Shown here in pieces: positions 59,026 through 61,283 of a DNA stretch of 64,000 nucleotides (position 1 is the stretch's first letter; the number at the start of each line of letters is the position of its first letter). The notes under the pieces were generated by a model. The model ran no database searches, was not told the DNA's origin, and was given only the letters and a program-made list of their open reading frames with translations. A program made the position numbers and the translations under genes. The DNA is from Escherichia coli. Lineage in GTDB: Bacteria > Pseudomonadota > Gammaproteobacteria > Enterobacterales > Enterobacteriaceae. The stretch lies in the NCBI RefSeq assembly GCF_003018235.1, contig NZ_CP027437.1, one strand, 5' to 3'.

Positions 59026-59244
59026 GTGAATAAAGCACAACGTAATGCTGCAGCGGCAGCGAATCGTCACAGGGTCTCGCCGGAACAGGTGCTCATCTGG
59101 TGTGAGCAACTGAAACGCATTGTGGACACAGCAAACCAGAATACGCGGCACAACGAAAAGAGCAGGGCGCTTGAGCCGATTATTGCGTGGATTGAGCAGC
59201 AGAAGAAACAGGCAATGGAAGAAATCAGAAAACGGGGTGAATGA
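59026..59244 (+). CDS. Hypothetical protein (72 aa), translationally coupled
   Basis: GTG start one nt after exonuclease stop; stop overlaps next start (ATGA). Confidence 0.45.
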   Translation: MNKAQRNAAAAANRHRVSPEQVLIWCEQLKRIVDTANQNTRHNEKSRALEPIIAWIEQQKKQAMEEIRKRGE

Positions 59245-61283
59245 AAATGGCAGAAGAAAAGAATCAGGAATATGCATATGTATTTCCGGTAAAAAACGAA
59301 GCCGCCAGAAAACGCCTGGGTTTTGCGCATGGCTTTTACTGGAAGAGTGATTGCTCACAGGCGAGAGTGTTGCTTCGGGCGAATGTTGCCATGCTGGATG
59401 CGGGTTTTGAACCGGAGGATTTCAAAAAGCCTGTACGTGTTAATTTCCCGGTGGTGAACGAACTCCCAGCGGAAGGTGTTTTTGATACGGAATTTTGCCA
59501 CCTGTATGTACCGGGCGGTGAAGACGGCAAGACGATGGTGTATATCGACGCTGTAAAACAGGAGGCAGACAAGGAAAAAAACAACGTAGCCAGTAACACC
59601 AACGTCAACGGCGAAGATATGACTGAGATTGAGGAGAGCATGCTTCTGCCGATTTCCGCTCAGGAGTTGCCAGTTCGCTGGCTGGCGCAACACGGGAAGG
59701 AGAACCCCGTTACTCACGTTTCCAGAGACGAACTTCAGGCTTTACATGTTGCACGGGCGGAAGAATTACCGGCAGTTACTGCACTGGCGGTTTCCCACAA
59801 AACAGGCCTGCTCGACCCGCTGGAGATCCGCGACCTTCACAAACTGGTGCGTGATACTGACAAAGTTTTCCCTCATCCTGGCAATTCAGACCTGGGGCTC
59901 TTGACTGCTTTTTTTGAAGCATACCTGAATGCTGACTACACCGATCGCGGTCTGCTGACAAAAGAATGGTGCAAAGGAAATCACATATCCCGCCTGGAAC
60001 GTAAAAAAATACAACCAGAGAGCGCAGAACCGCTACGTGCAACCAGGGAAAGACCGCGGCGTAGTGAAAAACCAACCTTCAGAACGATTAATTATGAAAT
60101 CGCCTGTGCTTTATGCCCGGGTGCGGACTGTCATGATTTACGTCCGGTGGTGAATTCAGCGAAGAAACTGATGGCTGACGGGGATGAAAGATGGCGGGCA
60201 TGGTCGACATCTCTTGGCATTACTGAAGGGATTAAAAACTGGGACAGAAAAACGATTTTTGACATGGTCAGTCAGGCTCCGTCACATGTCACAACGGGGT
60301 CAGCAGAGGCGCGCAGGGAGTGGATTGAAAACTTTCTGATTGCACGTGGTGTGCGTGATCCGGAGTGGGCTGAGCCGCTTGTATGCGTTTCCGTACCGGA
60401 ACATGAAGATAATCTGGAAAGAGTTCGCGGTGCAGGAAAACGTCTGCGGAAGCTTGAGAATAGTGATTGCACATTTCAGGCAGACAACGGTTCTGGGGAG
60501 GCTGAGGTGGTTGAAGCGGACGAAAGCAAAGCAACGTCATCTGCTGAAATTCAGGATGCCGATAAATTACTGGCCGCTTACCGTGGTGAATATGTTGAAG
60601 GGATTAGCGACCCGAATGATCCGAAGTGGGTGAAGGGGATCCAGAGACGCGATGATGAGGACCAGGATCAGGCTGAAGCGGAACAAGACGACCAACACGT
60701 GGAACGGAACAGCCCAGATGCGAGACAAAACGAGCCTGATACGGAACAGAATGAGCAAGGAGCACTGCAGGGACCGGAAAAAGTCTGCGACACCTGCGGA
60801 CAGGACGGAGGTGGAAAATGTCCGGATTGCGGTTCTGTCATGGGGGATAGCACATACAGTGCCGTTTATGGCGGGGATCGAGAGGAGTCAGCGTATGTGG
60901 CAGAGCATGGTGCTTTGAATAATCAGAGCAAAGTTACAGTTGGCGAGGTCATGGAGATCATGAAAGCGGTTAAGCCAGCCGTTCATGTTGATGCTGAAGG
61001 GGAAACGGAAGAGATAAACGGTGATCAACTATCACTGCAGACTGAAAATAAGGATGACCGGTCATCACGGAAAGCGTCAGAAGATGTGCCCATGTTTATC
61101 AGTGAGACCGTTCTCCATAAGGAGGATGGTGAGGCAAATATGAATATCTGTGAGTTGGTGAACATGTTGCATCAGCAACAGGAAATGCTGAAAGAAATCC
61201 GCTCAACTCAGGCCCGCTTTATGGGCGCGATTGTAGCCATGCTTTCGGTTATTTCAGGGGGAGAGCAGGTAGGACATGAGTAA
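59241..61283 (+). CDS. Large uncharacterised protein (680 aa) with acidic central region and C-x2-C-x7-C-x2-C zinc ribbon
   Basis: Long ORF, start overlaps upstream stop; CDTCGQDGGGKCPDCG motif; no HUH/rolling-circle or helicase motifs found by eye. Confidence 0.65.
   Translation: MKMAEEKNQEYAYVFPVKNEAARKRLGFAHGFYWKSDCSQARVLLRANVAMLDAGFEPEDFKKPVRVNFPVVNELPAEGVFDTEFCHLYVPGGEDGKTMVYIDAVKQEADKEKNNVASNTNVNGEDMTEIEESMLLPISAQELPVRWLAQHGKENPVTHVSRDELQALHVARAEELPAVTALAVSHKTGLLDPLEIRDLHKLVRDTDKVFPHPGNSDLGLLTAFFEAYLNADYTDRGLLTKEWCKGNHISRLERKKIQPESAEPLRATRERPRRSEKPTFRTINYEIACALCPGADCHDLRPVVNSAKKLMADGDERWRAWSTSLGITEGIKNWDRKTIFDMVSQAPSHVTTGSAEARREWIENFLIARGVRDPEWAEPLVCVSVPEHEDNLERVRGAGKRLRKLENSDCTFQADNGSGEAEVVEADESKATSSAEIQDADKLLAAYRGEYVEGISDPNDPKWVKGIQRRDDEDQDQAEAEQDDQHVERNSPDARQNEPDTEQNEQGALQGPEKVCDTCGQDGGGKCPDCGSVMGDSTYSAVYGGDREESAYVAEHGALNNQSKVTVGEVMEIMKAVKPAVHVDAEGETEEINGDQLSLQTENKDDRSSRKASEDVPMFISETVLHKEDGEANMNICELVNMLHQQQEMLKEIRSTQARFMGAIVAMLSVISGGEQVGHE

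Follow-up and report, generated by a model that had tools for sequence, protein, structure and literature searches.

The RecE/RecT pair is the workhorse of recombineering, and full-length RecE, unlike its bare nuclease domain, strongly stimulates linear-linear recombination. To our knowledge, about two thirds of RecE has had no function assigned since the 1990s, the sole lead being this boost to linear-linear recombination, as used in direct cloning. The literature gives the function of the part of RecE that is homologous to the protein described below as not known (PMC11611040, PMC11610958). In the Rac prophage, a retron toxin is triggered by recE and blocked by racC (bioRxiv 10.1101/2020.06.22.160242). 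Lambdoid phages carry distant RecE relatives without a nuclease domain, 'RecE-2', which are mentioned without characterisation, and DnaQ-like 3'-5' nucleases are reported in lambdoid recombination modules (PMC12315714); PF06630 and PF16473, two Pfam families that recur here, are not mentioned in the literature searched. The RecE family is thus known already, and its nuclease-less kind was noticed very recently (2025). We describe a gene at 59241..61283 (+) of a 64,000-nucleotide stretch of the Escherichia coli contig NZ_CP027437.1 (the window), carried by a prophage. What is new is a nuclease-less, mosaic and selected member of the RecE N-region family that is split from a DEDD exonuclease and accompanied by a dedicated small partner.

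The frame runs uninterrupted for 680 codons, exactly as the initial annotation had it, but the view of a protein of unknown function without recognisable relatives fails by the refuting condition set there: the homology to the N-terminal region of RecE (exodeoxyribonuclease VIII), a known phage recombination protein, is clear. PHROG 607 ('exonuclease VII/VIII') matches amino acids (aa) 8-600 (E=2.6e-131), the NCBIfam exodeoxyribonuclease VIII equivalog NF007259 aligns aa 7-429 with positions 4-422 of its 877, and Pfam Exonuc_VIII (PF06630) matches aa 50-194 (E=9.1e-35). The NF007259 score, 539.8 bits, is under the curated equivalog cut-off of 1269 bits, which is set for the whole protein. With the protein as query, tblastn recovers RecE of Rac, of Gifsy-1/2 and of many E. 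coli, Shigella and Klebsiella phages. These hidden Markov model (HMM) matches are no compositional artefact, because identity over aa 1-250 reaches 70-76%. As for the nuclease, neither the PD-(D/E)XK domain PF12684 nor the DEDD domain PF16473 has a Pfam match in the 680-aa protein, a PDB sequence search with this protein alone gave no match (fused relatives match 3H4R), and phmmer with the nuclease domain of the E. coli RecE P0018 found nothing in the P0001-P0004 cluster. On these comparisons the protein almost certainly belongs to the RecE (exonuclease VIII) family, as a free-standing form without the nuclease. It remains of interest although the family is known, because the function of the RecE N-region is unexplained and the nuclease-less form is under purifying selection.

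The RecE N-region family comprises at least 7,969 proteins, with 158 representatives at 50% identity among 1.84 billion proteins; it is large among close relatives and narrow in diversity. It has three main architectures: the N-region joined to a PD-(D/E)XK nuclease (RecE, ~890 aa), the N-region joined to an Rv2179c-like DEDD domain (~785-820 aa), and nuclease-less forms. Among 79 diverse members, 20 have PDDEXK, 15 have DEDD and three have RecT. The 80 nearest viral contigs (IMG/VR loci L016-L095), used as a background census, hold 21 PDDEXK fusions, 5-6 nuclease-less forms and 52 DEDD fusions, the last being the commonest architecture there (52/80). A RecT neighbour is found at 11 of the 21 PDDEXK-fusion loci and at none of the 52 DEDD-fusion loci, so the latter are not classical exonuclease/annealase pairs. 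An IMG/VR search for the branch of our protein itself returned relatives of at most 50% identity, with matches ending near residue 545-556. One further DEDD-fused gene, in E24377A (L006), sits between dicB-ydfD and xis-int.

The gene and the parts of its product are as follows.

59241..61283 (+): the gene, 680 codons, a RecE N-region protein without nuclease (PHROG, NCBIfam, Pfam, dN/dS)
59241..59990 (+): N1 sub-region (aa 1-250), an alpha/beta plus helical domain that holds the Pfam Exonuc_VIII match; predicted local distance difference test (pLDDT) mostly >90
59991..60470 (+): N2 sub-region (aa 251-410), a helical domain; pLDDT >90 from aa ~280
60471..61145 (+): acidic, Gln-rich, predicted-disordered region (aa 411-635), by composition and a pLDDT mostly <50
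60546..60650 (+): family-wide motif DADKLLAxxRGExVEGISDPNDPKW (aa 436-470), invariant or nearly so in alignments A1 and A5
60786..60830 (+): C-x2-C-x7-C-x2-C zinc knuckle (aa 516-530), found by regular expression; all four Cys invariant in A1
61146..61253 (+): C-terminal amphipathic helix (aa 636-671), pLDDT 65-81, with the chain ending ...GHE

In an AlphaFold2 (AF2) model built from an alignment of 79 sequences, aa ~10-410 form a confident body (pLDDT mostly >90), with a small alpha/beta domain followed by helical domains; a structured N-terminal region had been described, and it is predicted here. The structural matches of this N-body in AFDB50 are all members of the RecE N-region family, and its fold, as modelled, appears restricted to that phage family; the AlphaFold prediction and structure search that the initial annotation had in view thus give a confident fold at aa 10-410 without relatives outside the family. 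The long acidic linker described earlier is also there: aa 415-635 are predicted disordered, with 54 D+E against 20 K+R (125 against 80 for the whole protein; pI 4.86). The region aa 411-635 has a net charge of about -34 and carries the family-wide motif, the zinc knuckle and an NDDRS-type short motif, which is kept as KDDRS/NDDRS in distant relatives.

The DADKLL...GISDPNDPKW segment is 73-88% identical in most relatives compared and 59% identical in P0131, with no match in P0128; it is also found in short proteins and in nuclease proteins that have no N-body. The CxxC-x7-CxxC pattern had been correctly read, as CDTCGQDGGGKCPDC at aa 516-530. This knuckle occurs in the RecE, DEDD-fused and P0126 types but in none of P0127-P0132; it lies at low AF2 confidence within the disordered 415-635 and has a weak Pfam DZR match. 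The tail (aa ~546-680) was unmatched by HMM searches outside its own cluster, and the C-terminal helix with its H-(G)-E chain end recurs in the majority of the distant nuclease-less relatives (P0127, P0128, P0131 and P0132). Direct alignment of P0127-P0132, which are 25-50% identical to our protein in the N-region, shows in most of them an acidic disordered stretch with NDDRS/T and, after it, a long helix of amphipathic character; the H-(G)-E end, too, is found in most. A membrane anchor at the hydrophobic end (ARFMGAIVAMLSVISGG) was considered and rejected, since the equivalent helix of distant relatives has Arg, Lys and Glu.

The N-body itself is a composite. Its first 250 residues are 70-76% identical to E. 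coli RecE and DEDD-fused forms (70% to the 890-aa RecE P0018, 76% to the fusions) and 25-33% identical to a grouping defined in this analysis, the P2-context nuclease-less branch, whereas aa 251-410 are 36-52% identical to that branch and 23-31% identical to the RecE/DEDD fusions (23% to Rac RecE). This reversal, read from the alignments, marks a mosaic junction between N1 and N2. The tail design is common to our protein and the P2-context forms only. In comparison with the orthologue of L002, a related prophage with the same pheL site and the same gene order, the synonymous divergence dS is 2.46 in aa 471-545 (60651-60875), with about 0.6-0.8 in the segments on either side and about 0.65 elsewhere, and the spike is likely a recombination boundary inside the gene; the 704-aa forms have an extra insertion of 24 residues. 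The protein is an assembly of separable modules, as is typical of phage evolution. With no nuclease, an H-(G)-E helix tail and a coupled small open reading frame (ORF), the protein fits the P2-context nuclease-less branch (P0127-P0132 type), with the caveat that its aa 1-250 and zinc knuckle derive from the RecE/DEDD-fusion branch.

Compared with Rac RecE, the protein has in common the homologous N-body, the DADKLL...GISDPNDPKW motif, the CxxC-x7-CxxC knuckle and a place in a prophage early operon. It differs in having no C-terminal PD-(D/E)XK 5'-3' exonuclease (PF12684; PDB 3H4R), no RecT beside it, a dissimilar aa 251-410 and a different conserved C-terminal helix module. The RecE-N/DEDD fusions (PHROG 2082/20376; PF06630 + PF16473), of which examples are in CP-933-type and Qin/DicB-type prophages, share N1, the motif and the zinc knuckle, and as in them both functional units are in the locus with no annealase neighbour; unlike in them, the DEDD domain is a separate gene, upstream and past a 72-aa ORF. 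'RecE-2' (PMC12315714) is likewise RecE-related, nuclease-less and in the phage early region, a likeness of concept; beside it, our protein belongs to a P2-like/hybrid branch with a small partner ORF, the H-(G)-E tail and, in some members, DEDD in trans. An independent nuclease-less lineage (P0084/P0126 and five viral contigs) has Gam, RecT and a YqaJ-type exonuclease directly after it, and these proteins may be of the same kind as 'RecE-2'. The proteins of this independent lineage (loci L008 4001-7819, L023, L064, L091, L094 and L095; ~650-683 aa) have a conserved tail of their own with a hydrophobic segment; in those of the viral contigs and in P0084 the last residues are ...DDEYMPNF or ...DERLPDF, which recall the acidic end of E. 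coli SSB (...DDDIPF), while P0126 (L008) ends in ...MRIQEG.

The window consists of E. coli chromosome, aroF-tyrA-pheA-pheL, and then the prophage, in which the following features surround the gene.

55164..56168 (-): integrase, at the start of the prophage
56654..57127 (+): Cox, after which the rightward operon follows
57788-57875 (+): C4 antisense RNA (RF01695, P1/P7 immunity type), Rfam match at full length, 74 bits
58449..59024 (+): DEDDh 3'-5' exonuclease, 191 aa, Rv2179c-like (Pfam PF16473, E=1.3e-40)
59026..59244 (+): 72-aa partner ORF coupled to the RecE-N gene, a predicted two-helix hairpin
61276..61497 (+): winged helix-turn-helix (HTH) protein of 73 aa with TrmB/MarR-type HTH matches, with an 8-nt overlap between its start and the end of RecE-N
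61436..62284 (+): DUF1627 protein (PHROG 630, E=6e-88)

A C-type HTH repressor (-) lies between integrase and Cox. A near-identical copy of the prophage (99.6-99.8% identity) is in E. coli O158:H23 NZ_CP076709 (L001), where a P2 A-type 'replication endonuclease' (Phage_GPA, 640 aa) is encoded ~6 kb downstream of the RecE-N gene and is followed by DUF968, antiterminator Q, lysis genes, terminase and portal. Three related prophages, the near-identical one among them, have a Phage_GPA gene (640-648 aa) 4-6 kb downstream; the corresponding position in our prophage is beyond the window end. By the gene content of that copy the element is a complete P2/lambdoid hybrid prophage beside pheL. Its early rightward operon holds the RecE-N gene, which comes after cox and, by synteny with close relatives, ahead of the P2 A-type gene. 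The initial annotation had seen a cargo operon and in this gene the largest of the element; the NZ_CP076709 copy shows, instead of a small cargo element, a full prophage that runs past the window end, and a terminase large subunit gene of 2124 nt, longer than the 2043 nt of the gene in question.

The translational coupling proposed for both sides of the gene is present. Upstream, the TGA of the 72-aa ORF overlaps its ATG (ATGA), and downstream the 73-aa HTH ORF begins 8 nt ahead of its stop (ATGAGTAA). The true start is probably the ATG at 59247 (Met3), because homologues begin at Met3 and the spacing of the Shine-Dalgarno GGGGTGA fits this ATG better than that at 59241; the product would then have 678 aa, with coupling still tight. 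The DUF1627 gene starts at window 61481 in the annotation of the near-identical copy by the Prokaryotic Genome Annotation Pipeline (PGAP), and DUF1627 is at or near the position after RecE-N in L002, L010, L014 and L015.

The 191-aa exonuclease, whose gene is two ORFs upstream, shares 36% identity over its full length with aa 638-811, the C-terminal domain of the fused protein P0006 (818 aa), and its catalytic D-E-D-H-D aligns with the fused DEDD domain there. Domains of this type are fused to the RecE N-region in hundreds of prophages. The locus thus holds as separate genes two units that are joined in one polypeptide in most relatives, which gives a gene-fusion ('Rosetta stone') argument for a functional link between the two proteins. 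It is not a simple frameshift split, since the exonuclease gene is upstream, the two are separated by the 72-aa ORF, and divergence is greater in the exonuclease than in the N-region. The trio of exonuclease, small ORF and RecE-N recurs in L009 at 38% identity. A lysine-rich 51-aa ORF, 58282..58437 (+), lies 11 nt upstream of the exonuclease gene and is conserved in L002-L005; it is hypothetical in the near-identical genome and has no family match.

For the 72-aa ORF, AF2 predicts helices at 19-39 and 43-72 (pLDDT 70-85). In each of the six lineages (window, L002, L009, L010, L013 and L015), the nuclease-less RecE-N gene is preceded by an ORF of 71-81 aa that runs into its start or up against it; in L002 this ORF lies 5 nt upstream. 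These small ORFs have the common motif PEQ...N[TS]R.N, with NTRHN[EQ]K in four of the six; the one in the window has no match in the phage collection. Homology with RacC was considered for the 72-aa ORF and rejected (14% identity, no common motif).

The C4 match exceeds the Rfam gathering score of 45. Its hairpin-2 loop can form a 14-bp duplex of -21.3 kcal/mol with 57909-57922, an energy reached by three of 300 shuffles, and this segment is the GGAGG Shine-Dalgarno of an unannotated 85-aa ORF, 57929..58186 (+). The layout of C4 and the 85-aa ORF is that of c4-icd in P1, and it lies immediately before the operon of the exonuclease and RecE-N genes. Both L002 and L010 have a C4 at the equivalent place, preceded in L002 by an isrK-like RNA. 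A second isrK-like (13316-13390) and C4 (13426-13513) pair lies in L002 directly upstream of the P2 A-type gene, and two early operons may be gated by one antisense RNA type; the position equivalent to this second pair is beyond the window end. Weak Pfam Phage_ASH ORFs (194/195 aa) at window 57540..58124 (+), L002 6296-6880 and L010 1186-1773 overlie the C4 RNA gene, and in L002 the isrK-like RNA gene as well. The match in the window ORF is at aa 22-122, that is nt 57603-57905, covering the RNA gene, and PGAP has no annotation on the 57540..58124 stretch; these ORF calls may be translations across RNA genes.

Taken as a whole, the explanation we favour, as somewhat better than even, is that the protein is a nuclease-less RecE-family member acting as an accessory of DNA-end processing or recombination. 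Itself non-catalytic, it would serve a phage module for DNA-end processing/recombination as accessory or targeting subunit, its folded body and the linear motifs of its disordered part guiding the machinery to its substrate (DNA ends) or to partner and host proteins. RecE and the DEDD fusions would have their catalytic domain in cis; here the 191-aa exonuclease would provide catalysis in trans, or there would be none. This mechanism, taken alone, is more tentative, and we put it a little short of an even chance. An accessory role is suggested because the N-region is recurrently fused to three kinds of DNA-end enzymes and because of the linear-linear phenotype of RecE.

Several observations weigh against it. 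Co-occurrence with the exonuclease, raised in the initial annotation, holds in the window/L002 lineage and L009, where a DEDD exonuclease is upstream of the small-ORF/RecE-N pair, and fails in L010, L013 and L015, where no nuclease or annealase was found near the pair; strict dependence on a dedicated neighbouring nuclease is excluded by these three of the five diverged P2-context lineages. RecT, Beta and Erf have no match among the ORFs at 56.6-63.4 kb and none is annotated in the near-identical prophage. Fold searches with the N-body gave no functional clue. In an AF2 model of the 72-aa ORF GS-linked to the last 135 aa of the protein (six-lineage paired alignment; predicted TM-score 0.30, in a read-out without contacts or predicted aligned error), the tail helix has a pLDDT of 60-73, no more confident than in the full-length model. 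Fu and colleagues reportedly found in 2012 that the RecE N-region stimulates recombination in cis only; if so, an in-trans mode is not obviously predicted.

The alternative that survives best, unlikely as we consider it, is an autonomous host-takeover or counter-defence factor that acts on a host target alone or with its 72-aa partner, for example with the strongly acidic disordered region mimicking DNA or serving as decoy towards a host nuclease or immune sensor, the nucleases being fused or adjacent merely through a common early-operon niche. The pair kept without a nearby nuclease in three lineages speaks for it, as does the net charge of the disordered region. So do the setting of the gene among early accessory genes (Ren-like/DUF977, Ead/Ea22, DUF1627), the position of the operon downstream of a C4 immunity-type antisense RNA, which is that of the antirepressor operon in P1, and the precedent of racC, which blocks the RecE-triggered retron toxin in Rac, for a defence-related small partner. 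PADLOC has no match for the protein and gives only generic wHTH/DEDDh similarity for its neighbours, and no sequence or fold similarity to Gam was found for the protein.

A pseudogene fragment of a RecE-type exonuclease, decaying after loss of the nuclease, would explain why PGAP labels the near-identical gene in NZ_CP076709 as pseudo ('RecE family exodeoxyribonuclease; incomplete; missing N-terminus and C-terminus', L001 20175-21629 = window 59415-60869), why the NCBIfam score is so far under the equivalog cut-off (540 vs 1269 bits) and why only two of 5,426 complete E. coli genomes carry the gene at full length. The frame is nevertheless uninterrupted; relatives in four protein clusters, 677-704 aa long, cover 100% of its length at 69-99% identity (P0002-P0004 at 69% over the full length); and the ratio of nonsynonymous to synonymous divergence (dN/dS) against the 704-aa L002 orthologue is 0.23 at dS 0.73, and <1 in every segment including the unique tail (0.30 in the tail helix). 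The neighbours have values of 0.12 (191-aa exonuclease), 0.14 (72-aa ORF) and 0.23 (73-aa HTH). The tail module and the coupled small ORF, moreover, are kept in lineages only 25-50% identical in the N-region. The gene is thus intact and maintained by purifying selection, as judged from the dN/dS value, the full-length relatives of 69% identity and a tail design kept across six lineages. A decaying remnant is contradicted by the selection and conservation data and, being highly improbable, is effectively excluded, and the PGAP label looks like an annotation artefact from the use of full-length RecE as reference.

Least probable of all, and effectively excluded, is a divergent replication initiator, primase or helicase loader of the P2 A/P4 alpha type, for which one could cite the size of the gene, its early-operon place in a P2-like element and a zinc-binding motif, as in primases, but which is contradicted by the lack of any Pfam match to Phage_GPA, primase or helicase and of Walker A and HUH motifs in a motif search of the protein, by the bona fide Phage_GPA gene downstream in the near-identical prophage and relatives, and by the zinc knuckle being present also in RecE and in the DEDD fusions of lambdoid prophages, which replicate by O/P-type systems. 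The likeness to P2 gpA and P4 alpha is in size class and early-operon position only, without similarity of sequence or motif. On this point the earlier reading had been right, in that it saw neither Walker nor HUH motif and no match to an initiator; its expectation that the initiator should lie at this position was misplaced, the gene being 4-6 kb downstream in related prophages.

In a bolder reading, the RecE N-terminal region could be a self-sufficient unit, with its own fold, that forms, in P2-like hybrids, a previously undescribed two-protein system with a co-evolving 72-81-aa helical partner, an optional 3'-5' exonuclease and a C4-gated operon. This unit would act either by tethering or synapsing DNA ends or by interfering with a host factor for DNA surveillance or defence, and the same activity would be the contribution of the N-terminus in RecE. 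We regard this proposal as possible, though on balance doubtful; if true, the nuclease-less lineages would be natural separation-of-function alleles for the 560-residue RecE N-terminus. The RecE N-region, in any case, persists under selection without an attached nuclease and is exchanged among phages as separable modules, and the free-standing protein offers a natural genetic handle on the long-unexplained RecE N-terminus. RecE-N relatives may yield accessory factors that improve recombineering. For automated annotation, the case is one of an intact, selected gene flagged as a pseudogene by PGAP.

Two other features of the window deserve mention. (i) Our prophage and L001, otherwise 98-99.6% identical, differ by a swapped segment of ~1.2 kb (window 62250-63417, L001 23010-24590), a fresh mosaic exchange. 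The version in the window consists of a Ren-like/DUF977 gene (62285..62722) and, at 62723..63136, a CxxC-containing gene of PHROG 1621. (ii) The stretch at ~26000-33000 has a low G+C content (0.34-0.44, against ~0.50-0.55 around it) and a positive GC skew, and is probably another horizontally acquired island, unrelated to the RecE-N gene.

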